The notes under the pieces: model-generated
The model's database searches: none
What the model saw: the letters and a program-made list of their open reading frames with translations, nothing else
What the model was told of the DNA's origin: nothing
Assembly (NCBI RefSeq): GCF_050320075.1
Contig: NZ_CP190018.1
DNA length: 64,000 nucleotides
Strand: one strand, 5' to 3'
Origin: Escherichia coli
GTDB lineage: Bacteria > Pseudomonadota > Gammaproteobacteria > Enterobacterales > Enterobacteriaceae
Position numbers and translations under genes: made by a program
In this document: piece by piece, positions 13,122 through 61,245 of the stretch
Layout: each line of letters starts with the position of its first letter
Position numbering within the stretch: the stretch's first letter is position 1

Positions 13122-13223
13122 ATGAAAGAGAATAAAGTACAACAAATCAGTCATAAACTGATTAATATCGTTGTTTTTGTCGCAATTGTAGAATACGCCT
13201 ATTTATTTCTCCATTTCTATTAA
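13122..13223 (+). CDS. ykgR: small membrane protein, 33 aa (MKENKVQQISHKLINIVVFVAIVEYAYLFLHFY)
   Basis: Short ORF with RBS AGGAAG, hydrophobic C-terminal half; conserved position upstream of ykgM; a degenerate copy occurs at 32044-32160. Confidence 0.6.
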   Translation: MKENKVQQISHKLINIVVFVAIVEYAYLFLHFY

Positions 13224-13543
13224 TAACGGCAATAAACTGTTCACTTCAGTGATATTAAAAAATATGCATCCTCTCCCTTTTTTGTAAGTAATTATTATAT
13301 CCGTGGGAGAGGAATACACGCTGTCCGGCAATCAATCAAACTGCGATAAATCATCGGCCAGTAAAATGGAGATAGCCTCCATTCTCGAAAAATTCATACT
13401 CTCAGCGAAACCATCACTCATCAAGGCGTTTATGGGAGCGTCGCCAATGGCTGCTAACAATGCCAGACTTCCCCGTTGCCGAAATTCCACATACCACAAA
13501 TGGTCACAGGGATTGGGTGTTGAAATGATCCGGATGAGCATGT

Positions 13544-23366: not shown

Positions 23367-23771
23367 ATCTACCCTGCTTGTACCATTATGTTATACACCT
23401 CTTCAGGAGTATTCATAAAATAAGACAAATGTAAAGAACTGTATTGTTTTGTATAATGCAATGGTGACTAATCGCCAATGAATATAAGCACCATCATTTC
23501 TCCCTATTTTTATATTAAAAGTGACAACGATTTACAGGGTGATGCTGAGCTGACAATCACAGGTTTCCTTATCGGTTTTTGCATCGCACAACTAAAGCAA
23601 TAAACTAGCTCCCGTCATCGGCGAATATGAATTAATTAGCCGGGCTCATAGCTGCATTCGCGTTTTAAGAATAATCCTCCTGCTCTCACCGACTATGCTT
23701 AACGTTTAAAAAAGCATCAGCACTCTCGCAACGCACTCTTATTTTCCCCTTTAGAATACCGGAGGCCTGGT

Positions 23772-24461
23772 ATGAGCAACCAAGGCGAATACCCCGAAGA
23801 TAATCGGGTTGGGAAGCACGAGCCGCACGATTTTAGTTTGACCCGTCGCGATCTGATTAAAGTCAGCGCCGCAACGGCGGCGACCGCCGTGGTTTATCCT
23901 CATTCTACGCTTGCGGCAAGCGTTCCGGCAGCTACACCCGCGCCAGAGATAATGCCCCTGACACTTAAGGTGAACGGCAAAACCGAGCAGTTGGACGTTG
24001 ATACCCGAACCACGCTACTGGACGCTTTGCGTGAAAATCTGCATCTGATCGGTACCAAGAAAGGTTGCGATCACGGACAGTGCGGAGCCTGTACCGTGCT
24101 GGTCAATGGTCGAAGGCTTAATGCCTGCCTGACGCTTGCAGTCATGCATCAGGGGGCCGAGATCACCACCATTGAAGGCCTGGGTTCACCAGAGAATCTT
24201 CACCCCATGCAGGCGGCCTTTATCAAGCATGATGGCTTCCAGTGCGGCTACTGCACCTCCGGGCAAATTTGCTCATCAGTAGCGGTGCTAAAAGAGATTC
24301 AGGACGGCATTCCCAGTCACGTCACGGTCGATTTGGTTTCCCCTCCAGAAAGAACGGCCGATGAGATCCGTGAACGTATGAGCGGCAACATCTGTCGCTG
24401 TGGTGCATACGCTAACATCCTTGCCGCCATTGAAGACGCTGCGGGGGAGATAAAATCATGA
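23772..24461 (+). CDS. paoA: periplasmic aldehyde oxidoreductase, [2Fe-2S] iron-sulfur subunit with Tat signal
   Basis: 229 aa; twin-arginine motif ([18 protein letters not shown]), two Cys clusters ([11 protein letters not shown] and CGYCTSG...CRCG). Confidence 0.95.
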
Positions 24462-27205
24462 AGGCGTTTACCTATGAACGTGTGAACACCCCGGCCGAGG
24501 CGGCACTTAGCGCTCAGCGCGTACCTGGCGCAAAATTTATCGCTGGCGGGACCAATCTGCTGGACCTGATGAAGCTGGAAATTGAAACGCCAACCCACCT
24601 TATCGATGTGAACGGGCTCGGGCTCGATAAGATTGAAGTGACCGACGCGGGTGGGCTGCGCATCGGCGCACTGGTACGGAACACCGACCTGGCGGCTCAC
24701 GAGCGCGTGCGTCGTGATTACGCGGTACTCTCCCGCGCCCTGCTCGCTGGCGCGTCTGGTCAGTTACGCAATCAGGCAACCACCGCAGGTAATCTGCTCC
24801 AGCGCACGCGCTGCCCCTATTTTTACGACACCAATCAGCCCTGCAATAAGCGCCTGCCCGGGAGCGGCTGCGCGGCACTTGAAGGCTTTAGCCGTCAGCA
24901 CGCGGTGGTAGGCGTAAGCGAAGCCTGCATTGCCACCCATCCGAGCGATATGGCGGTCGCAATGCGGTTGCTGGATGCGGTGGTGGAAACCATCACGCCG
25001 GAGGGAAAGACTCGCAGTATCACACTGGCTGATTTTTATCACCCTCCGGGAAAAACGCCGCACATTGAAACCGCCCTGCTTCCCGGTGAGCTTATCGTTG
25101 CGGTGACGTTACCTCCGCCGCTCGGCGGAAAACATATCTACCGCAAGGTGCGCGATCGCGCCTCCTACGCCTTTGCCCTGGTATCGGTCGCGGCGATTAT
25201 TCAGCCTGACGGCAGCGGGCGCGTCGCGCTGGGCGTACTGGCTGTCATTACCGCCAGTAACGCCGGGGCACTCGGCAAAGGCGACAAAAACACCGCCAGG
25301 CTGTTAGGCGGCCCCACTATTGAACACTATCATCAGGCCATTGCGCTGGTAGTGGCCGAGACCTTCGAACAGGCGCGAGCGGCGGCCTCGCTGGTGCAGG
25401 CGCACTATCGCCGTAATAAAGGAGCTTACTCCCTGGCGGACGAGAAACAGGCCGTCAGTCAGCCGCCGGAAGACACGCCCGATAAAAATGTTGGTGACTT
25501 TGACGGGGCTTTCACCTCCGCTGCGGTGAAGATTGATGCTACCTACACGACCCCGGACCAGAGCCATATGGCGATGGAGCCGCATGCCTCGATGGCCGTC
25601 TGGGATGGAAATAAGCTTACCCTCTGGACCTCAAATCAGATGATTGACTGGTGCCGCACCGATCTGGCAAAAACGCTGAAAGTGCCCGTGGAGAATGTGC
25701 GTATTATCTCCCCGTATATCGGCGGAGGGTTTGGCGGCAAGCTGTTCCTGAGAAGCGATGCGCTGCTGGCGGCCCTCGCCGCCCGTGCGGTGAAACGTCC
25801 GGTTAAAGTGATGCTCCCCCGCCCCACTATTCCCAATAACACCACGCACCGCCCCGCCACCCTTCAGCACTTGCGTATCGGTACTGACCAGAGCGGGAAA
25901 ATCACCGCTATCTCACATGAAAGCTGGTCCGGAAACCTGCCCGGCGGCACGCCGGAAACGGCGGTACAGCAAAGCGAATTTCTTTACGCAGGGGCGAATC
26001 GTCATACCGGCCTGCGGCTCGCCATGCTTGATTTGCCGGAAGGGAACGCCATGCGTGCGCCCGGCGAAGCCCCCGGTCTGATGGCGCTCGAAATCGCGAT
26101 CGATGAACTGGCGGAAAAAGCGGGCATCGATCCCGTCGAGTTTCGCATCCTGAATGACACTCAGGTTGACCCCGCCGATCCGACGCGCCGCTTCTCTCGC
26201 CGTCAGCTTATCGAGTGCTTGCGCACCGGAGCGGATAAATTTGGCTGGAAGCAGCGCAACGCCACACCCGGACAGGTACGCGACGGGGAGTGGCTAGTCG
26301 GCCACGGTGTTGCGGCGGGCTTTCGCAATAATCTGCTGGAAAAATCGGGTGCGTGGGTTCACCTGGAGCAAAACGGCACCGTTACCGTGGAAACGGACAT
26401 GACCGATATTGGCACTGGCAGCTACACCATTCTGGCCCAGACGGCAGCGGAAATGCTTGGCGTACCGCTGGAGCAGGTTGCGGTTCACCTCGGCGATTCC
26501 AGTTTCCCGGTTTCTGCGGGGTCTGGTGGACAATGGGGCGCGAATACCTCCACCTCCGGCGTTTACGCCGCCTGTGTGAAGCTTCGCGAAATGATTGCCT
26601 CGGCAGTCGGGTTTGATCCTGAGCAGTCGCAGTTTGCCGACGGCAAGATTACCAACGGTACCCGAAGCGCCACGCTACATGAGGCCACCGCAGGCGGCAG
26701 ACTGACAGCGGAAGAGAGCATTGAATTCGGAATACTGAGCAAGGAGTACCAGCAATCGACCTTTGCCGGGCATTTTGTGGAGGTCGGCGTGCATAGCGCG
26801 ACGGGAGAAGTTCGGGTCCGGCGTATGCTCGCCGTGTGCGCAGCGGGGCGCATTCTGAATCCGAAAACTGCACGCAGCCAGGTCATTGGCGCGATGACTA
26901 TGGGCATGGGCGCGGCACTGATGGAGGAGCTGGCGGTAGATGACCGTTTGGGCTACTTCGTTAATCACGATATGGCGGGGTATGAAGTGCCGGTTCATGC
27001 GGATATCCCAAAACAGGAGGTGATTTTCCTGGATGATACCGACCCCATCTCCTCCCCGATGAAGGCCAAAGGTGTCGGTGAGCTGGGCCTGTGCGGCGTG
27101 AGCGCGGCTATCGCCAACGCGGTGTATAACGCCACCGGTATTCGGGTACGGGATTATCCCATCACTCTGGATAAGCTGCTCGATAAGCTGCCGGATGTGG
27201 TTTAA
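24458..27205 (+). CDS. aldehyde oxidoreductase FAD subunit (PaoB) fused in frame to the molybdopterin subunit (PaoC); apparent internal deletion
   Basis: Single 915-aa ORF: the N-terminal ~258 aa are a CO-dehydrogenase-flavoprotein-type FAD domain ([13 protein letters not shown]), continuing without stop at ...DGSGRVALG|[11 protein letters not shown]... into a molybdopterin-binding large subunit that lacks its first ~75 residues. Confidence 0.8.
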
Positions 27206-27214
27206 GGAGGAACA

Positions 27215-28168
27215 ATGTCATACTCGCTTTTTGACAAAGACGAGCACTGGCATAAGCCAGAGCAGGCGTTTCTCACCGATGACCACCGGGCCATTCTGCG
27301 CTTCGCCGTAGAGGCGCTAATGTCCAGTAAAGGAGCGGTGCTGGTGACGCTGGTGGAAATACGCGGCGGCGCGGCGCGCCCGCTCGGGGCGCAGATGGTG
27401 GTGCGCGAAGATGGTCATTACTGCGGTTTTGTCTCTGGCGGCTGCGTGGAGGCCGCTGCCGCTTTTGAAGCGCTGGAGATGATGGGCTCAGGCCGCGATC
27501 GCGAAATTCGCTATGGTGAAGGTTCGCCGTGGTTTGACATCGTTCTGCCCTGCGGCGGTGGGATCACGCTGACGCTCCATAAACTACGCTCGGCACAACC
27601 TCTGCTCGCCGTGCTGAACCGCCTGGAACAGAGAAAACCGGCGGGTCTGCGCTACGATCCGCAAGCACAATCGTTGGTGTGCCTGCCCACGCAAACCCGG
27701 ACGGGCTGGAATCTCAATGGCTTTGAGGTGGGGTTCAGACCATGCGTCAGGCTGATGATTTACGGACGTTCTCTTGAGGCGCAGGCAACCGCGAGTCTTG
27801 CAGCAGCCACAGGCTATGACAGCCATATCTTCGATCTTTTTCCGGCCTCAGCCAGCGCTCAGATCGATACCGATACGGCGGTCATTTTGCTGTGCCATGA
27901 TCTCAACCGGGAACTGCCAGTGTTGCAGGCCGCGCGAGAAGCAAAACCCTTTTATCTCGGCGCATTGGGCAGCTATCGAACCCACACTTTACGTCTGCAA
28001 AAGCTCCACGAGCTGGGATGGTCCAGGGAGGAGACAGAGCAAATCCGGGCACCTGTCGGGATATTCCCCAAAGCCCGGGATGCGCATACTCTGGCCCTTT
28101 CCGTACTGGCAGAAGTCGCCGCTGTACGTCTCCGTCAGGAGGATTCATGCCTGCCCCCATCGTCCTGA
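27215..28168 (+). CDS. paoD: XdhC-family molybdenum-cofactor insertion chaperone
   Basis: 317 aa; XdhC/CoxI-type sequence; immediately downstream of the Mo subunit. Confidence 0.9.
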   Translation: MSYSLFDKDEHWHKPEQAFLTDDHRAILRFAVEALMSSKGAVLVTLVEIRGGAARPLGAQMVVREDGHYCGFVSGGCVEAAAAFEALEMMGSGRDREIRYGEGSPWFDIVLPCGGGITLTLHKLRSAQPLLAVLNRLEQRKPAGLRYDPQAQSLVCLPTQTRTGWNLNGFEVGFRPCVRLMIYGRSLEAQATASLAAATGYDSHIFDLFPASASAQIDTDTAVILLCHDLNRELPVLQAAREAKPFYLGALGSYRTHTLRLQKLHELGWSREETEQIRAPVGIFPKARDAHTLALSVLAEVAAVRLRQEDSCLPPSS

Positions 28169-28254
28169 TCCTCGCGGCGGGGCGTGGGGAGCGCTTCCTC
28201 ACCTCCGGGGGAAATACCCATAAATTAAGAGAAAAATCTGCAGTAGCCGTTTAA
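28147..28254 (+). pseudogene. 5' remnant of a MobA/MocA-like nucleotidyltransferase gene
   Basis: ATG overlapping the paoD 3' end encodes MPAPIVLILAAGRGERF (the NTP-binding loop of MobA-like enzymes) and stops after 35 codons. Confidence 0.45.
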
Positions 28255-28346
28255 GAAAATCACCTAAATCGTTTAAAAGAGCGCCCAACCCATAGTGGGC
28301 GCTTATCGCCTTGTGAAACTTATTCAGCAACGCGCGCCTCGCCGGA

Positions 28347-29540
28347 CTAAAGCGCACCGGCCTTCTGGCGTGCGGTAACAAAGGTCAGTACGCCAGCGCA
28401 AAGGAGCAGCACGCTACTCATAGCAAACGTGCTCTGCCAGCCAAGGCGGTCAAACACAATGCCTCCTGCCGTTGATCCAAGGGCGATGGCGAGCTGAATC
28501 ACCGCGACCATGAGCCCGCCTCCAGCTTCGGCGTTGTCAGGCAACGTACGCGCAATCCATGTCCACCATCCGGTTGGCGCGGCGGTGGCCAGCATGCCCC
28601 AGAGTCCTAACAGCAGCGAGACCGTCCAGACGTGATGCCCGGTAAGCATCAGACCGATGGCAATGACGGCCATCAGTCCGGGTATGGCCATCAGCGTGGG
28701 GTAGAATTTTCTGTTGAGAAATGCCGAAACAACCAGCGTGCCAATAAAACCGGCCACGCCGATAATCAGCAAAATCGACGACAAGCCTAAGGAATTAACC
28801 CGTGTCACCGACTCCAGAAACGGGCGCACATAGGTGAATAGCGCAAACTGCCCCATGAAAAACAGGCCACAAGCTATCATGCCGACCACAACCATGCGGC
28901 GGCTAAATAAGCGGAATACCGCGCCACATGAAGTGTGGCTTTTATTCGCATCCATGCTTGGCAGGCTGATGCACTGCCAGATAAAGGCGACAACCGCGAT
29001 GGGCACCAGGCACAAGAAAGCGCCTCGCCATCCGACCGTAGCCCCCAGATAGCTTCCCAGCGGTGCGGCCACGACCGTCGCCAGCGCATTACCGGCGTTG
29101 AAAATTGCCAGCGCACGCGTGACCTGATGCTGCGGCACCAGACGAATCGCCGTTGCCGCTGACATCGACCAGAATCCGCCAATAGCCACACCAATCATCG
29201 CACGACCGACCATATACATCAGATAACTGGAAGCCAGCGCAATAATAAGCCCCGATACGGCCATCAGAACCGTCATCCCCAGCTGCAGGAACTTACGATT
29301 CATCTTTCCAGCTAGCGTTGAAAGCGTCAGGCTGGTCAGAACCGCCAGCGCGCCGGAGATAGCAATCCCCTGCCCTGCCAGCCCCTCCGTCACGCCTAAA
29401 TCGCGGGTAATCGGCGTGAGCAGGCTGACGGGCATAAATTCAGAAGCAATCAGCACAAACACGCACAGGGTCATGGCAAAAATACCGCCCCAGTATGCGC
29501 GCTGATGATGAGGTGATAGTGTTTGGCTTAGTGTCGACAT
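28347..29540 (-). CDS. MFS-family transporter (12-TMS efflux-type)
   Basis: 397 aa, highly hydrophobic with an MFS-like loop motif. Confidence 0.8.
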   Translation of the reverse strand: MSTLSQTLSPHHQRAYWGGIFAMTLCVFVLIASEFMPVSLLTPITRDLGVTEGLAGQGIAISGALAVLTSLTLSTLAGKMNRKFLQLGMTVLMAVSGLIIALASSYLMYMVGRAMIGVAIGGFWSMSAATAIRLVPQHQVTRALAIFNAGNALATVVAAPLGSYLGATVGWRGAFLCLVPIAVVAFIWQCISLPSMDANKSHTSCGAVFRLFSRRMVVVGMIACGLFFMGQFALFTYVRPFLESVTRVNSLGLSSILLIIGVAGFIGTLVVSAFLNRKFYPTLMAIPGLMAVIAIGLMLTGHHVWTVSLLLGLWGMLATAAPTGWWTWIARTLPDNAEAGGGLMVAVIQLAIALGSTAGGIVFDRLGWQSTFAMSSVLLLCAGVLTFVTARQKAGAL

Positions 29541-29615: not shown

Positions 29616-30752
29616 TTATTTCAGTTTGGTCTGGAAAAATTGTTCGAACTTCGCGAAAGGTATTTTTCCGGCCACGTTATCGTACAGGTCCACGTGATTT
29701 GCCCCTGGTACCACCACCAACTCTTTGTCTTTACTGCCAACCGCCTTGTAAGCATCTTCAGCAAAATAGCGTGAATGTGCTTTCTCACCGGTCACAATCA
29801 GCGTCGGAATGGTGATTTCACTGGCGTAGCTCAACAGCGGCATATTCATAAATGACAGCGGCATCGTTGCCGTCCACGCCCCGGTAGAGTTAACGGAACG
29901 TTCGTGGAAGCCGCGCGGCATGCGATAGTAGTCAAAGAACTCTTTCAGTACCGGATGAGGATTTGCCGGCAGCGTTTCTGGCAGAATGCGCTCGCCCGCA
30001 CTGACCTTGCCGTTGCTGTCGACATTAATATCATGACCACCGTGAGCGAACGTTCCGCTCTGCGCATCCTTCCAGCGCTGTTCATTCAGATATTGCAGAA
30101 CAGCACGACGGTCGGCGGTAGAATAACGGTCTTTGCCATCCCCCACACCATGGCCCATCGCCCGGCTCATGTCATACATCACGCTGGTAGCTACCGCTTT
30201 AACGCGGGTATCCATCGCCGCGTCGTTCAGCGCCATGCCGCCCCAGCCACAAATACCGAGCAGCCCGATACGGTTGCGATCTACCTCTTTTTGCAGCCCT
30301 AAGAAATCCACTGCCGCGCTGAAATCTTCAGTGTTGATATCCGGTGAGGCGACGTTTCGCGGATAGCCGCCGCTTTCCCCGGTGTAAGAAGGATCGAACG
30401 CCAGGGTAACAAACCCTCGTTCCGCCAGCGTCTGCGCATACAGGCCGCTGGATTGCTCTTTCACCGCGCCAAATGGCCCACTGACCGCAATCGCCGCCAG
30501 CTTGCGATCGCCACGGTCTTTAGGCAGGTAAAGATCGCCCACTAAGGTGATGCCATATCGGTTCGGGAACGAGACTTTACGGTGATCGACTTTCTGGCTC
30601 TCGGCGAACGTTTTATCCCATTTATCTGTCATGGACACAGGGGCATTAGGATTGGTTGAATCAGCATAACTCATTGTCGTGACTCCACTTAATGATGCGA
30701 AAAGCAGCATGGTCGGCATCGCGGTTTTTAGCGTGCGGGTGAAGGCTTTCAT
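29616..30752 (-). CDS. secreted alpha/beta hydrolase (dienelactone hydrolase / S15-like), paralogue of the 10414 gene
   Basis: Signal peptide MKAFTRTLKTAMPTMLLFASLSGVTTMSYA; shared catalytic-core motifs with the 10414..11334 product. Confidence 0.75.
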   Translation of the reverse strand: MKAFTRTLKTAMPTMLLFASLSGVTTMSYADSTNPNAPVSMTDKWDKTFAESQKVDHRKVSFPNRYGITLVGDLYLPKDRGDRKLAAIAVSGPFGAVKEQSSGLYAQTLAERGFVTLAFDPSYTGESGGYPRNVASPDINTEDFSAAVDFLGLQKEVDRNRIGLLGICGWGGMALNDAAMDTRVKAVATSVMYDMSRAMGHGVGDGKDRYSTADRRAVLQYLNEQRWKDAQSGTFAHGGHDINVDSNGKVSAGERILPETLPANPHPVLKEFFDYYRMPRGFHERSVNSTGAWTATMPLSFMNMPLLSYASEITIPTLIVTGEKAHSRYFAEDAYKAVGSKDKELVVVPGANHVDLYDNVAGKIPFAKFEQFFQTKLK

Positions 30753-30938: not shown

Positions 30939-31823
30939 ATGGCGAAAAGGGAGAACTACAACGAGCTGTACCTGTTTATGCAGGTGGTGCGGGAAGGCAG
31001 CTTTACCGCAGCGGCTCAGCGGCTGGGTCTTGCTCAGTCAGGAGTCAGCCGTTCTGTTCGCGAGCTTGAAGAAAGGCTGGGTGTCCAGCTGCTAGTGCGC
31101 ACCACGCGTAAACTGTCGCTGACACAAGCAGGCGAGCAGCTCTACCAGAAGACGGCATCTGGATTTGAAATGTTAGATCTTGGGCTTGCCACGCTGGCGC
31201 ATTATCGAGAGACGCCCTCCGGCACGGTGCGTATCAATGCCAGCCAGCACGCGATTGATAAATGCCTGCTGCCAAAGCTGGCGGTATTTAAACAGAGATA
31301 TCCTGATATCCGGCTTGAACTGATAAATGAGAGCCGGTTCGTCGATATCATCGAGGAAAGATTCGATGCAGGTGTCCGCCTGGGGCCTGAAGTCGGCCAG
31401 GGTATGGTCGCGGTACGCATCACGCCCGATATGGAGATGGCAATTGTGGGGACTCCGGAACATTTTCGTCGCTATGGTTTTCCGCAAACCCCGGCGGATT
31501 TAAAGGCGCATCCCTGTATCGCCTATCAGTTTGCCGACGGCAGCGTATACCAGTGGGAACTCAATCAGGATGATAAAAAAATCACTCATCGCCCTGAAGG
31601 GCAATGGGCCCTATCCGACAGCTATATGGAAGCAGAAGCCGCCCGGCTGGGCCTCGGATTGGCCTATGTTCCTGTTGAACTGGTCGCGGATGATTTAGAA
31701 CACGGTAAGCTTATCAGGGTGTTGCAGCGTTACAGCCTGCGAATGGAGGGATTGTTTCTCTATTACCCTCATCGCAACGTCTCCCCCGCCCTGCGGATGG
31801 TCATTGATACATTGAAAATCTGA
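30939..31823 (+). CDS. LysR-family transcriptional regulator
   Basis: 294 aa; HTH LYLFMQVVREGSFTAAAQRLGLAQSGVSRSVRELEERL; divergent from the hydrolase/MFS pair. Confidence 0.85.
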   Translation: MAKRENYNELYLFMQVVREGSFTAAAQRLGLAQSGVSRSVRELEERLGVQLLVRTTRKLSLTQAGEQLYQKTASGFEMLDLGLATLAHYRETPSGTVRINASQHAIDKCLLPKLAVFKQRYPDIRLELINESRFVDIIEERFDAGVRLGPEVGQGMVAVRITPDMEMAIVGTPEHFRRYGFPQTPADLKAHPCIAYQFADGSVYQWELNQDDKKITHRPEGQWALSDSYMEAEAARLGLGLAYVPVELVADDLEHGKLIRVLQRYSLRMEGLFLYYPHRNVSPALRMVIDTLKI

Positions 31824-32043
31824 ACGTTAACAACGACCGACTCTTCACTGTGCAAAATTGTGTCAGGTAGTCCCTCTGCGTTCAATTCCAGGGTCTGCTT
31901 TGAGCGAGAAAGAGGGGACTATCCAGCAATGGAGATCACCCAAAAGAAAAAACCACCTGGCTCCCTCGACAACCTTCATCCGGGCATTTAGCCTCAATCA
32001 ACATTTTTATATCTGTCAGGTTACTTCATTATGAAAACTGATC

Positions 32044-32270
32044 ATCATCGTTGTTTTTGTTGCAATAGTAGAATACGCGTATTTATTCCTCCATCTCTAT
32101 TAATAACGGCAATAAACTGTTCACTTCACTGATATTTAAAATATGTATCCTTTTCAAGCTGTTCAGCGGCGTAAGAAAAAGTATTAATTATGAATTCGAT
32201 GATTTAACCATATCTGTCTGATTGGTAATCATCCGTGATTAATGCTGGTCTATTGATTACGCCAGAACCC
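32044..32270 (+). repeat. degenerate second copy of the ykgR 3' region joined directly to a ykgO 3' end-like segment
   Basis: 32044-32160 aligns by eye (roughly 80 percent) with 13155-13270, and 32170-32270 with 13951-14065 (encodes ...AVQRRKKKY* versus ykgO ...AVQGRKKKR*); the ykgM/ykgO body is absent between them. Confidence 0.7.
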
Positions 32271-33177
32271 TCTCTAGCTTATTCACCGCCGCCACATACT
32301 TCGCCGGATTTTTATCTTTAAGCACCGCCAGATTGCGTTGCTTCCAGCGAATAGCCGGAAGATGCTGAATTTCAGGATAGCGATACCGCGACCAGTCAGG
32401 GCTGTTTTGCTTAAAACTGAGCAAGAACTCGCGATCCAGATCCGTAAGATGTGACTTCAACGCCTGCGGCAGCAAAGTCGTTACTGACAGAAGCGATTCC
32501 AGCGACGTTTCCTGTTGCGTCATCCCTGAAAATTCCTGCGCGTACAACGTGGCGATCCGCTCTGTATCCCAGTTTGGAGCCAGCAACTCGGCGATGGGGC
32601 GGGGATGGCCTGCCAGATAACAAAGAAAACCGTCAAAGATCTCCCGCATCAGTCCCGGTTTCTCCAGCATATTCAGCACATCAAACAGATCGCGCGGGTG
32701 CTGACGATCAAGCGCAGCGCAGATTTTACCGCCATAAAGATCCGCCAGCGAGACGACACTCATGGTGGTGAAGCCATACTCCATTTCCACACGTTCGCAC
32801 ACAGGCATTTCTGCCGGAGGCAACAACAGCCCGCGCCAGACCGGGCTAACCTCGATCTTAATCTTTGCATCAGCGGTATTCACAATGATGCGCTTTTCAT
32901 CCGCTTTATTTTCCTGCCGAATCGCGGTGATCCCCGGTCTGCCGTTCAGCGATGCAGTAATCCTCTTCAAAGCGTCGTTGATAGCCGCCAAATCAGTATC
33001 GCGATCCGCAAAGCTCTTGTACGCCAGATCAATATCCACCGACAGACGGGGAAAATCCTGCACAAACAAATTGATTGCGGTGCCGCCTTTCAACGCGAAA
33101 CAGGACTCCTTCGCCACATACGGCAGAGCGGCCATCAACAGTTTGACCTGCCGGGCATAGCTATCACGCAGATCCAT
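32257..33177 (-). CDS. AbiEii/AbiGii-family nucleotidyltransferase toxin (type IV TA / abortive infection)
   Basis: 306 aa; NTase motifs (ALKGGTAINLF, DIDL); overlaps the upstream antitoxin gene by 14 nt. Confidence 0.85.
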   Translation of the reverse strand: MDLRDSYARQVKLLMAALPYVAKESCFALKGGTAINLFVQDFPRLSVDIDLAYKSFADRDTDLAAINDALKRITASLNGRPGITAIRQENKADEKRIIVNTADAKIKIEVSPVWRGLLLPPAEMPVCERVEMEYGFTTMSVVSLADLYGGKICAALDRQHPRDLFDVLNMLEKPGLMREIFDGFLCYLAGHPRPIAELLAPNWDTERIATLYAQEFSGMTQQETSLESLLSVTTLLPQALKSHLTDLDREFLLSFKQNSPDWSRYRYPEIQHLPAIRWKQRNLAVLKDKNPAKYVAAVNKLERVLA

Positions 33178-33967
33178 CTTCGACTCCTTCCGGTTTAAAT
33201 GCGCGTGGAACAGTAATTTGATAATCCGGCTCCAGCCAGCCGCCGGGTATGATTTGCCGCTTTCCCGTACCTGTTTCTATACCGCTTTGATCAATATACT
33301 GAAAATAAGGGTGTCCATTACGCCGGGCAAGGTAAAGCATCACCCGGTTGGTTTTAACCGAATGGCTGGCGCGAAGCAGTGCCTGCAATTTGCGTGGGCT
33401 GAGAAGATTCAACCCCTGAAACAGAGCATCGGCATGTTCGAACGAGATTAACGAAGGAACGCCGCAGGCGATCTCATACGCGGCCAGTTCCGGAACACTG
33501 CCTGCTAACTGGCGGTCGCCAATTTTCAGTTCCGTAGTAAATGGCGTTACATCAGCGGTAAGGCCTGACGTATACAGCGTGACAAACGTTGCGGATTGTT
33601 CAAAGGCAGAAAACCATCCCGGCAGTTTGACGTAAGCCGGAAGCGCGAGCCAGACCTGCGGCTTACCCTGTTCGGTATAGTGCGCATGACCCTGAAGCGC
33701 AAGGCTGGTTAGCCCCGCCACCCGAACAGGCTTTTCCCACTGCGATTGCAGGCAGTAAACCGCATCCACCCAATCCGGTTCACGACCCGTCCGGCAGTAT
33801 ACGCCGTGAGCGATCCGCCTGAGCCAGCCATTCTTCACATAGAGATAAGAGAGCTTACGATCTATGCCGTTGCGGGTAAGCCATGACTGGAGCAGCACCT
33901 GGCCGGGTAGCGTGTGCTGCATCAGCCAGTTTAGATAGTTTGGCAACTGTCGCCTCTGAATAGACAT
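33164..33967 (-). CDS. AbiEi-family antitoxin / transcriptional regulator
   Basis: 267 aa, N-terminal winged-helix-like region; immediately upstream of and overlapping AbiEii. Confidence 0.8.
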   Translation of the reverse strand: MSIQRRQLPNYLNWLMQHTLPGQVLLQSWLTRNGIDRKLSYLYVKNGWLRRIAHGVYCRTGREPDWVDAVYCLQSQWEKPVRVAGLTSLALQGHAHYTEQGKPQVWLALPAYVKLPGWFSAFEQSATFVTLYTSGLTADVTPFTTELKIGDRQLAGSVPELAAYEIACGVPSLISFEHADALFQGLNLLSPRKLQALLRASHSVKTNRVMLYLARRNGHPYFQYIDQSGIETGTGKRQIIPGGWLEPDYQITVPRAFKPEGVEDGSA

Positions 33968-34261: not shown

Positions 34262-37200
34262 ATGACATATCAGGCAATTTTCACTGGCTGGGATGATCTG
34301 ACGATTGAAGACCTTCTGGTCGCTTACCGGAAAGCAAAAGCCGATAGCTTCTTTGAGAATACATTTCCTGTTGCTATCAAATTTGCCGAGTATGAGCAGG
34401 AATTACTTGAAAACCTGCAAAAACTCTTAGATCTTTTGCAGAGCGAAGATGGATTCAGTAGCAATAAGAAGTTGATTGGCAAATTTCGATTGTTACCGAA
34501 AAAATTAACCACAAAGAAAAAACATGAATCCCAAAATGGACACGTCCACTTTTCTAATCCTAAACGAGCAGCCGACCATTTATTTAATAATTTTGATCTG
34601 ATACCAGAGTTTCGTATTATTGGTGACTTCCCGGTTGATAGTCACATTATCTCTGCACTATGGATTAACATGGTCGGGCATAAATTTGATGCCAGCTTAG
34701 ATAACTGTTGCTATGGCGCGCGGCTAAAGCGTATTCGTAATGATGAATTATTTAGCAATGAGCAGGATAATCCATTCCATATCAGTGCCGTGGGTTCTTT
34801 TAGCCCCTACTTCCAGCCCTACCAAAAATGGCGTGGTGATGGCTTAAAAGCTATACGTGACGAGTTGGAAAAAGATCGTGACATTATCGCCGCCTCACTG
34901 GATTTAAAAAGTTACTATCATTTTATTGATCCACTGGCTATAACCTCTGATGATCTCTATAACACACTAAACATAAAACTGACTGAGGATGAAAAAGCGT
35001 TTACTGCACAGTTAGCAGTATTCTTAAAGCACTGGTCTGACGGCGCAGCGGCATTTGGAAAGAAAATAGCGTACAAAACACCTGTTATTAATGGTGGTCT
35101 GGTCATTGGATTAACAGCCAGTCGGATCATTTCAAATATATTGCTACACCATTGGGATAAATTAGTCATTGAAAAACTATCACCAATTCACTACGGTCGT
35201 TATGTCGATGATATGTTCCTTGTAATACGCGATACAGGGACAATTACTAATAATCACGAATTTATGTTATTGCTGCAAGATAGGCTTGGCAATGATTGCG
35301 TTTATTTGAAAAACGAGCAAAAACAAATATGGCAAATACAGCAGGGCGAGCATTTCCAGGGTAAGACCACCATCCAGTTACAATCCGATAAGCAAAAACT
35401 TTTCGTGCTTCAAGGGAGGGCTGGAATAGACCTGCTCGACAGTATCGAAAAGGAGATCTACGAGCTTTCTAGTGAACACCGCTTGATGCCTTCACCGGAT
35501 CAACTGGAACACTCCACCGCAGCTAAAGTCCTTTCCGCTGCCGGTAGTGTAGGTGAAAATGCCGATACTCTGCGCCGTGCGGATGGATTAACCATTCGTC
35601 GTTTGGGCTGGTCACTGCAATTACGCTACGTTGAAACACTGGCACGAGATCTGCCTCCAAGTGAATGGAAAGAACAGCGGGAAGAGTTTTATCAGTTTGC
35701 CTACAACCATATTCTTAGGGCTGATAATCTATTTGCACATTTTAGTTATCTGCCAAGGCTGCTTGGCTTTGCTATCAGTATGAATGAATGGCAGCACGCG
35801 GAAAAAATTGTACTTAAAGCTTACGAATCCATCAACCTGTTGGCATCGGTGATTACTTCAGGTAAGGAAGTGAATATAAATGGTTGCAAAACTCGAGCAG
35901 TAAATGATCTTTGGCGCTGTATAAAAGGCACATTAAGCTGGCTATTTGTTGATGCAGCGACACGATATTACAGTCCTGACAGATTATTTCTTGATAAACG
36001 TTCAAAGAAAGAAGAGTGCCTTGCGGATACATTTTTTAATCATATTTCACAAAGTCTGACGAATCTAAAGGATTTACTGGATCTTCGCTTTGATTCAGCA
36101 GATTTTTATTTAAAAGCGCCATTGGTAGCTCGAGCTGATTTAGCAAAGGAACCTTATAAACAGATCGTAAAGAGTCAGTCGGCAGAAAAACTTGTTAATC
36201 AGCGTGATAGTAAAAAAGAAGTTAAAATACTGAAATTAATGAGCGACTCATCGCTTATTGATATTGACGTTATTAAGCTATTTTTGAAATCAACCAAGAA
36301 TACCCGACTGGAAAAAGTGGCTAAAGGAAATCGTAAGAACGAAAGTTACCTACCTTACATTTTCCCTACACGTCCTTTAACACCCGCTGAAATATCAGAA
36401 CTGGCCCCCGAATGTGTTGGATTACCCTCCACATCCGACAAAAAACCAGATGAGAGACCGTCCACCATTTGGGCAAAATATACTCAAGCATTACGCGGAG
36501 TATGGATCAAACCGACGTTGCTAGCATCGGAGCAGGACTCAGATGAAGCGACAAAAAAAGCTCGGCCTAAGAAATTCATTCATATTGGCACAGACAGGAA
36601 ACATAAAGTTGTCGTTGCGCTAACCAGCATTAAAACAGAGGAGGACGACTGGGCTAAAATGGCCTGCAATAAATCTAACTTGTCCCGTTCAAGGTACCAG
36701 CGGATTTCTGAACTGGTTAATGCAACATTGAAACTATCTCCTAAACCTGATTATGTTTTATTCCCTGAGCTTTCAATCCCGTTACGCTGGGTTAACAGTA
36801 TTGCTGATCGTTTGAGTTCGGCGGGTATCAGTCTAATTGCGGGAACAGAATACCGCCACTTAGACGATAATCAACTGAAGAGTGAGGCCGTACTTGTCCT
36901 TTCAGATAACAGACTCGGCTATCCAGCGAGTGTCAAAATATGGCAACCCAAGCTGGAACCCGCCGTAGGTGAAGATGAGGCATTATTTTCAATTTATGGT
37001 AAGTCTTGGGATTCGACACTTAATGTTAAACAACGTAAGCCGGTATATATTCATCACGGCGTCAATTTTGGCGTTATGATTTGCTCTGAACTCCAGAATA
37101 GTAAAGCGAGGATCCGTTTTCAGGGCGCACTCGATGCATTAATGGTATTGAGCTGGAATAAAGATCTAGATACGTTTGCATCGTTGATTGAATCAGCAGC

Positions 37201-37471
37201 GCTGGATATTCATGCCTATACTATTTTAGTGAATAACCGAAAATACGGCGATAGTCGCGTACGTTCCCCGGCAAAAGAACCCTTTATGCGTGATATTGCT
37301 CGTGTGAAGGGCGGTGATAATGACTTTGTGGTCGCTGCAACGCTGGATATCGACTCGTTAAGGGCATTTCAGAGCAGGGCAAAACGCTGGCCTAAAGGCG
37401 GCGATAAATTCAAACCGTTACCTGAAGGATTCCAGTTGGCAAAGAACCGCAAAAAGCTACCGCCAAAATAA
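34262..37471 (+). CDS. reverse transcriptase fused to a C-terminal nitrilase (carbon-nitrogen hydrolase) domain; DRT type 1 / UG1-like defence RT
   Basis: 1069 aa. RT motif A ASLDLKSYYHFID, motif B GGLVIGLTASRIISNILL, motif C YGRYVDDMFLV (YxDD). C-terminal domain has nitrilase catalytic-triad contexts FPELSIP (Glu) and GVMICSE (Cys). AT-rich relative to flanks. Confidence 0.85.
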   Translation: MTYQAIFTGWDDLTIEDLLVAYRKAKADSFFENTFPVAIKFAEYEQELLENLQKLLDLLQSEDGFSSNKKLIGKFRLLPKKLTTKKKHESQNGHVHFSNPKRAADHLFNNFDLIPEFRIIGDFPVDSHIISALWINMVGHKFDASLDNCCYGARLKRIRNDELFSNEQDNPFHISAVGSFSPYFQPYQKWRGDGLKAIRDELEKDRDIIAASLDLKSYYHFIDPLAITSDDLYNTLNIKLTEDEKAFTAQLAVFLKHWSDGAAAFGKKIAYKTPVINGGLVIGLTASRIISNILLHHWDKLVIEKLSPIHYGRYVDDMFLVIRDTGTITNNHEFMLLLQDRLGNDCVYLKNEQKQIWQIQQGEHFQGKTTIQLQSDKQKLFVLQGRAGIDLLDSIEKEIYELSSEHRLMPSPDQLEHSTAAKVLSAAGSVGENADTLRRADGLTIRRLGWSLQLRYVETLARDLPPSEWKEQREEFYQFAYNHILRADNLFAHFSYLPRLLGFAISMNEWQHAEKIVLKAYESINLLASVITSGKEVNINGCKTRAVNDLWRCIKGTLSWLFVDAATRYYSPDRLFLDKRSKKEECLADTFFNHISQSLTNLKDLLDLRFDSADFYLKAPLVARADLAKEPYKQIVKSQSAEKLVNQRDSKKEVKILKLMSDSSLIDIDVIKLFLKSTKNTRLEKVAKGNRKNESYLPYIFPTRPLTPAEISELAPECVGLPSTSDKKPDERPSTIWAKYTQALRGVWIKPTLLASEQDSDEATKKARPKKFIHIGTDRKHKVVVALTSIKTEEDDWAKMACNKSNLSRSRYQRISELVNATLKLSPKPDYVLFPELSIPLRWVNSIADRLSSAGISLIAGTEYRHLDDNQLKSEAVLVLSDNRLGYPASVKIWQPKLEPAVGEDEALFSIYGKSWDSTLNVKQRKPVYIHHGVNFGVMICSELQNSKARIRFQGALDALMVLSWNKDLDTFASLIESAALDIHAYTILVNNRKYGDSRVRSPAKEPFMRDIARVKGGDNDFVVAATLDIDSLRAFQSRAKRWPKGGDKFKPLPEGFQLAKNRKKLPPK

Positions 37472-38637: not shown

Positions 38638-38789
38638 CTTATTGATTTTAATGGTGCGATAAGAGGAATGAATATTGCAAGTTAACGCATTGATTTATAA
38701 TAGATTATTATATTCAAAAAATATAACTATACACATATCTATACACACTGCGCGCATCGCTTGTTTTTCGCACAATTAAAAATAAGAAA

Positions 38790-60560: not shown

Positions 60561-61043
60561 CTATGCGTTTGGGATATCGCCATCAATCAGAGGGAGATCG
60601 CCTGGGTAATATCGGTCAGATGTGAACACGTCATATTTATTACCCTGCCCTACAGGAAAATCTCCACGTCGTCGCATTGAAGGAACAACCAGAGTGTCGG
60701 TCATCAAGGCATCATATGAGCGTTGGGCGTTACTGAGAACTTGCGGAGTTGGCTCAAGGCTGTAATCAGATAGCATTCTCAACAATAACTGATAGCCTAC
60801 TGCGTGTTTGTATTTTCTTGGAAGACCTGACTCATCATCTGGTAATGGCTGCTCATCTCCAGTTGCGAAAGCGTAACCAATGTCGCCGGGGTTAATCATC
60901 CACTCTGACATCATATCTTCCAGATCATTTACACCATCTTCAATTGATTGCGGCTCAACATCAGTCAGCGATGCATTAGAAGCAATAGCAAACTTACGAA
61001 GCGCAAAAAGGACGATCTCACCCTTTGTCAGTGCTGTTGCCAT
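60561..61043 (-). CDS. tail accessory factor (P22 gp4 position)
   Basis: 160 aa; position after coat gene. Confidence 0.65.
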   Translation of the reverse strand: MATALTKGEIVLFALRKFAIASNASLTDVEPQSIEDGVNDLEDMMSEWMINPGDIGYAFATGDEQPLPDDESGLPRKYKHAVGYQLLLRMLSDYSLEPTPQVLSNAQRSYDALMTDTLVVPSMRRRGDFPVGQGNKYDVFTSDRYYPGDLPLIDGDIPNA

Positions 61044-61245
61044 TGTCCGCCGCCTTACGACCTCGCTTACTGGTCGGTTTCAATTCATCAACTGAGGCAA
61101 CAAAGCCCAACCTTTCGAAAAACTGGAAGTCTTTTTCTGCGATAACGGCCTGTACATGCCCGGATTCGTTATCTGCGGCAAGGAATACACTCATCCGATC
61201 CATATTGTTTCCTTAAAACATAAAAGGGGCGTAAGCCCCTTGTTA

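Follow-up and report, generated by a model that had tools for sequence, protein, structure and literature searches.

A short open reading frame that begins within the end of paoD in Escherichia coli is very probably a non-functional relic of a fifth pao-cluster gene, namely its first 27 codons, left by an internal deletion. In most related genera, and by all appearances ancestrally, paoD is followed by a gene for a MobA/MocA-like transferase, and E. coli presents a reduced case. The relic was found in a stretch of 64,000 nt (assembly GCF_050320075.1, contig NZ_CP190018.1), called the window here; coordinates refer to it unless another locus is named. Its loss is ordinary gene decay, with a modest bearing on how the Pao enzyme gets its cofactor. 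The view of how the Pao system works is left unchanged, and the main value of the finding lies in annotation and in the absence of a pao-linked cofactor transferase from E. coli.

The reading frame at the end of paoD

The gene paoD (27215-28168, plus strand) codes for an XdhC-family molybdenum-cofactor insertion chaperone, as judged from Pfam matches (XdhC_CoxI and XdhC_C) and from the RefSeq annotation of an identical genome. Its last 22 nt are shared with a 35-codon reading frame, whose ATG (28147-28149) precedes the paoD stop by 19 nt and whose TAA occupies 28252-28254. The product, read directly from the window sequence, is MPAPIVLILAAGRGERFLTSGGNTHKLREKSAVAV. A Shine-Dalgarno sequence, AGGAGG (28137-28142, plus strand), is located 4 nt upstream of the ATG, within the coding region of paoD, and is conserved in the aligned E. 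coli variants. An earlier sequence-only reading had described a 35-codon frame starting over the paoD stop at 28147-28254, and these limits, with the 22-nt overlap, are confirmed. Between 20600 and 38667 the window is 99.98-99.99% identical to E. coli strain CFSAN061763. The RefSeq annotation of the identical genome contains no feature between paoD and the convergent MFS gene; the frame is without annotation, a pseudogene remnant from a known protein family.

Relatives of paoD were collected together with their flanks, one genome per species. A tblastn search with the remnant peptide returned a match directly 3' of paoD in 20 loci, among them representatives of Pluralibacter, Leclercia, Enterobacter, Silvania, Siccibacter, Pseudenterobacter, Dryocola, Cedecea, Kosakonia, Citrobacter sedlakii, Pseudocitrobacter and Pseudescherichia. 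These 20 loci carry intact reading frames of 183-197 amino acids, whose start overlaps the end of paoD as in the window; such a gene thus occupies this position in about 20 enterobacterial genera. The MobA-like NTP-transferase domain PF12804 was present in all four intact orthologues scanned (E = 1e-23 to 1e-26). The sequence-only reading had taken the frame for the truncated start of a MobA-like gene once located 3' of paoD and had suggested a comparison with related genomes; these do carry the full-length gene at the same position. It had also named similarity limited to the glycine-rich loop as the outcome that would speak against such a gene. All 27 codons match instead, and the matching DNA is continuous from paoD onwards.

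The remnant (28147-28227, plus strand) carries the N-terminal nucleotide-binding loop LAAGxGxRF. Compared with the closest full-length copy, on a Salmonella contig (L035), 26 of its 27 amino acids and 77 of its 81 nucleotides are identical. In the next 81 nt past codon 27 only 20 positions agree, which is the random level (~25%). Alignments made by blastn to three loci (L003, L030 and L035) all end at 28227 and place the deletion junction at 28227-28228. The frame is thus truncated with respect to intact orthologues of the same locus, and its homology ends abruptly. By these alignments, homology is confined to codons 1-27, and codons 28-35 are junction sequence: the non-homologous tail (28228-28254, plus strand) consists of eight codons (REKSAVAV) and the TAA. 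Reading the frame as a truncated gene is accordingly right for codons 1-27 and wrong for the tail.

A profile HMM built from 20 full-length orthologous proteins of other genera was used to search all 1,496 stop-to-stop segments in the window. The remnant frame was matched (E = 4e-10) over profile positions 1-28, and the segments yielded no further part of the gene. A weak match at 60564-61079 on the minus strand (E = 0.002) is spurious, as the region codes for a P22 tail accessory factor. A Pfam scan of the 35-residue peptide gave no NTP_transf_3 match even at E <= 10, and its LonC_helical match (E = 0.25) is meaningless. The peptide covers no more than about 22 of 160 positions in the PF12804 profile: the nucleotide loop is kept, and the central and C-terminal substrate-binding parts of the catalytic domain are gone. 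The family assignment is therefore based on positional orthology to full-length genes and not on the glycine loop alone; membership in PF12804 follows from position, sequence and DNA continuity, and not from a profile match of the peptide itself. The remnant is a fragment of a PF12804 member, not a functional member.

Junctions downstream of paoD

The closest full-length protein carries a Salmonella enterica annotation (92% identity). The Salmonella contig L035, 17.8 kb long and adjoining conjugation and integrase genes, carries a 5'-truncated paoD (94% amino acid identity to that of the window), the full 184-aa gene, an interval of ~7.2 kb, and then genes for an MFS transporter (minus strand), a hydrolase (minus strand) and a LysR-family regulator (plus strand). 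The last three genes have the same order and orientation in the window. There, the MFS transporter gene (28347-29474, minus strand; Pfam MFS_1, RefSeq) is the first gene past the junction and its product is 82% identical to that of L035. It is followed by an alpha/beta hydrolase gene (29616-30674, minus strand; Pfam, RefSeq; 95.6% amino acid identity) and by the gene of a 294-aa LysR-family regulator (30939-31823, plus strand; Pfam HTH_1 and LysR_substrate; 98.3%).

The interval of ~7.2 kb in L035 encodes a second hydrolase, a response regulator, a histidine kinase, a cupin, a CMD protein, a flavodoxin and an abhydrolase. Genes of this interval are also located 3' of the pao cluster in Silvania, from the second hydrolase through the CMD gene, up to the end of the loci compared. 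Part of them has been deleted in Enterobacter oligotrophicus and in a Pluralibacter metagenome-assembled genome (MAG), and the pattern differs between the two: in E. oligotrophicus, truncated hydrolase and CMD genes directly adjoin (L032-L034, 8722-9648), and in the Pluralibacter MAG a flavodoxin fragment is all that is left (L003, 6509-6842). Genes 3' of the intact pao-linked gene are thus decaying independently in other lineages.

The state found in the window is best read as a single internal deletion of ~7 kb, which extends from codon 28 of the lost gene to just beyond the MFS gene. Because L035 carries the full gene together with the same three genes, and because the interval is syntenic elsewhere, the MFS/hydrolase/LysR block was probably already linked to the cluster. 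The sequence-only reading had attributed the loss to the acquisition of this block; with the full gene and the three genes ~7.2 kb apart in L035, the block was probably not acquired at the time of the loss, and this part of the reading is not supported. The full pre-deletion order is seen in one contig only, which is associated with mobile elements and whose MFS protein is more diverged (82%) than its neighbours; the arrangement in L035 could be a mosaic and not, in the strict sense, the ancestral one.

The junction is separated from the MFS stop codon by a spacer of 119 nt (28228-28346), found in E. coli loci of the window type only. Since this spacer has no counterpart outside E. coli, the right breakpoint of the deletion cannot be placed exactly. 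The spacer contains a GC-rich hairpin (28279-28304; -16.6 kcal/mol, z = -3.7, plus-strand fold), which may act as a terminator where the MFS and pao transcripts converge. A scan of 27900-28500 for promoter and terminator consensus called nothing, the hairpin included.

Two other accounts of this junction have to be weighed. It might be supposed that no gene ever existed here and that the glycine-rich stretch is a chance match, as the 35-aa peptide taken alone has no significant Pfam match. Such an account is practically out of the question and is already refuted: the 81 nt contiguous with paoD are 95% identical to a full-length gene, the gene occupies the same position in 20 loci, and the orthologue HMM finds the remnant at the E value given above. 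The gene could also have been cut by insertion of a horizontally acquired MFS/hydrolase/LysR island instead of being lost through an internal deletion. The region lies beside thrW, a hot spot for the integration of variable islands; most other genera do not have the three genes 3' of pao; and the identity of 82% between the MFS proteins, compared with 94-98% for the flanking genes, hints at mosaicism. We nevertheless find an insertion quite unlikely, as L035 has, within a single contig, the full gene and, ~7.2 kb away, these three genes in the order and orientation of the window. An island would moreover be expected to leave the 3' part of the gene beyond itself, and that part is absent from the window and from all E. 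coli genomes searched, while the junction is flanked by no integrase, IS element or repeat.

A further junction is found in the K-12-type arrangement. There the first 26 codons of the remnant are fused in frame to 110 C-terminal codons of a LysR gene, which yields a reading frame of 136 amino acids (L041, 3382-3792, in E. coli K-12; also L002, 5551-5961). In MG1655 the fusion is annotated as yagP (b0282), with an overlap of 22 nt with paoD. Genomes of the O157 type have the window-type junction and, ~6 kb downstream, an intact copy of the yagP-type LysR gene (L036, 11440-12339). The K-12-type sequence reads ACCCATAAG up to the junction and TGTATC beyond it; the intact LysR gene of O157-type genomes reads AATCATAAGTGTATC. 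This junction is the product expected of a deletion between the CATAA in codons 25-26 of the remnant (28219-28223, plus strand) and a CATAA in the LysR gene, so that the K-12 state presents a second, microhomology-mediated deletion over the first, one that the window does not have. The LysR fragment in yagP is not derived from the LysR gene of the window: tblastn gave no match at 30939-31823, and O157-type genomes carry both LysR genes.

The protein known in K-12 as 'putative LysR family substrate binding domain-containing protein' thus has the start codon, the paoD overlap and the first 26 codons of the window frame, whereas the window still shows the state before the second deletion, in which codon 27 and the MFS, hydrolase and LysR genes are present. 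Being a chimera, yagP should not be taken for a LysR-family protein that has its own start. A literature search of incomplete coverage found no account of its origin, which is not proof that none has been published. The left ends of the window-type and K-12-type deletions lie 4-8 nt apart (28219-28228) within a gene of 555 nt. The CATAA microhomology explains the endpoint of the second deletion, not its closeness to the first.

Among 5,426 complete E. coli genomes, the end of paoD is present in 3,600, and similarity to the full-length gene past codon 27 was found in none of the 5,426. The window-type junction occurs in 912 genomes and the K-12-type junction in 2,678, which together account for 3,590 of the 3,600. 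About one third of complete E. coli genomes are without the pao region, and the paoD scan returned no representative of another Escherichia species. The E. coli pao region (23600-28227) has 88-94% DNA identity to the 'Pluralibacter' MAG (L003), to E. oligotrophicus (L032) and to the mobile-element-associated Salmonella contig. These observations are hints of a horizontal history of the whole pao cluster.

We propose the following history. The ancestral cluster would have consisted of paoABCD followed by the gene of a MobA-like nucleotidyltransferase of ~184 amino acids, and the start codon of the latter, 19 nt before the paoD stop, would probably have coupled its translation to that of paoD. 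A first deletion of ~7 kb in the E. coli lineage would have removed codons 28-184 and the genes for the second hydrolase, the two-component system, the cupin, the CMD protein, the flavodoxin and the abhydrolase. It would have brought codon 27 next to DNA that lies 119 nt past the stop codon of an MFS gene already located downstream. The ribosome-binding site, the ATG and 27 codons now lead into junction DNA, with a stop after eight more codons. In most E. coli, K-12 included, a second deletion between CATAA repeats then fused codon 26 in frame to 110 LysR codons, giving yagP.

The lost gene and the fate of its remnant

PaoC binds the molybdopterin cytosine dinucleotide cofactor, and this cofactor is made by MocA (PMC2997495). 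XdhC-like chaperone genes paired with a MocA-like gene are known from Bacillus subtilis (pucA-pucB), from Arthrobacter pAO1 (xdhC-mocA) and from Oligotropha (PMC2997495). In E. coli, PaoD reportedly interacts with MocA, from which it receives the cofactor, and the operon has been described as ending with paoD (PMC3909100).

The best-scoring NCBIfam model for the intact orthologues is that of MocA/YgfJ (TIGR03310), with 80-95 bits, below the equivalog cut-off of 186.45. MocA belongs to the same fold family (PF12804), and its loop TAAGxSxRM resembles the LAAGxGxRF loop of the remnant. The intact orthologues also follow an XdhC-type chaperone of a cytosine-dinucleotide enzyme, a pairing like pucA-pucB and like xdhC-mocA of pAO1 (PMC2997495). 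An intact orthologue is nevertheless just 21% identical to MocA of E. coli K-12 (E = 5e-4), in an alignment over the C-terminal two-thirds only, and the E. coli remnant is a stub of 27 codons and no enzyme. PucB of B. subtilis, encoded next to the XdhC homologue PucA, presents the same pairing of a chaperone and a MobA-like transferase in a gene cluster of the xanthine-oxidase family (PMC2997495), but its model (TIGR03202) gives a weaker match (45-51 bits, cut-off 235) and its gene order relative to the structural genes differs. MobA, the GTP:molybdopterin guanylyltransferase, shares the Pfam domain and has a similar glycine-rich nucleotide loop at its N-terminus, but MobA models score the orthologues at 18-23 bits, and the context is that of a xanthine-oxidase-family enzyme and not of a bis-MGD enzyme. 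The nearest solved structures, the 'MobA/MocA-related protein' (2we9) and a Sulfolobus protein, are both weak matches. In public databases the intact orthologues are mostly named 'nucleotidyltransferase family protein', and a few 'CTP:molybdopterin cytidylyltransferase'.

Judged from its family and its context, the intact gene most plausibly codes for a dedicated pao-linked cofactor transferase. Its position most likely means that it makes, or helps to deliver, the cytosine-dinucleotide molybdenum cofactor for PaoC, and from the same context we infer a cytidylyltransferase activity. The sequence-only reading had called the lost gene MocA-type. This label holds in a qualified way, as a family resemblance combined with genomic context: TIGR03310 is indeed the best model, but with the scores and the identity given above the label does not amount to tested membership. 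Outside E. coli the intact gene could serve Pao specifically, as a fifth gene that encodes a cofactor transferase other than MocA, and E. coli could be unusual in being without it. The loss may have been tolerated through compensation by the paralogue MocA (ygfJ), encoded elsewhere. The reduced state of E. coli fits the reported reliance of PaoD on an unlinked MocA (PMC3909100). For Pao maturation in other Enterobacteriaceae, or for heterologous expression of PaoABC, the intact gene is a candidate dedicated cofactor gene.

The stub itself behaves as a decaying pseudogene and is very probably a non-functional relic. With about 22 of 160 domain positions left it yields no enzyme; a short peptide may still be translated from it, given the intact ribosome-binding site and ATG. 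In O157/O145 strains a deletion of 1 nt in codon 24/25 results in a frame of 26 amino acids, and in another E. coli strain an insertion of 1 nt past the junction results in one of 49. Together with the 35 amino acids of the window and the 136 of K-12, four lengths are thus found. Substitutions at residues of the motif among E. coli stubs include E15K, T19A and S20C, and the MG1655 stub has R16C at a nearly invariant arginine. The differences among strains, in a small sample, are those of relaxed constraint.

One might argue that the stub is kept for a function, either as a small protein or because its translation is needed for paoD expression or termination, for example through ribosomes reading through the overlap. 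No E. coli variant examined has lost the ribosome-binding site or the ATG, two different deletions both spared the first 26-27 codons, and MG1655 annotates the fused yagP as protein-coding. We consider this very unlikely. The ribosome-binding site and the ATG both sit inside paoD and are constrained by it, as are the first 22 nt of the frame in any case, and the endpoint of the second deletion is explained by the CATAA microhomology. The end of the frame is not conserved (26, 35, 49 or 136 amino acids), the O157/O145 frameshift falls within the retained codons, and E15K, R16C, T19A and S20C affect conserved residues of the motif. The pao operon of the window is itself broken by a deletion between paoB and paoC. 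All pao-bearing E. coli examined keep 26-27 codons and the ribosome-binding site, so it may be asked whether initiation inside the end of paoD, or the N-terminal peptide, is still selected, for example by coupling or stabilising paoD expression; we give this very little credence. Decay of a relic is the reading we retain.

Surroundings of the remnant in the window

In the window, paoB and paoC are fused into one frame of 915 amino acids (24458-27205, junction at 25226-25233). The fusion corresponds to a deletion of 404 nt between imperfect 8-bp repeats, GCGC(T/C)GGG, and in the identical genome both genes carry a pseudogene label in RefSeq. This strain probably has no active Pao enzyme.

The window matches CFSAN061763 up to 38667, 16 nt into the 3' end of a tRNA-Thr gene (thrW; 38652-38667). 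From 38668 to 64000 it diverges from this strain into prophage-like DNA, with the gene of the P22 tail accessory factor at 60561-61043 (minus strand). No intact tRNA was detected in the window by ARAGORN. According to the annotation, an AbiEii/AbiEi toxin-antitoxin pair (32257-33177 and 33164-33967, both minus strand) and, next to it, the gene of an RNA-directed DNA polymerase of 1,069 amino acids (34262-37471, plus strand) lie between the LysR gene and an integrase fragment at thrW. Together they resemble a small defence island. The LysR gene is directly followed by a partial second ykgR (32035-32103), coding for a small membrane protein and ~90% identical to the copy at 13155-13272.
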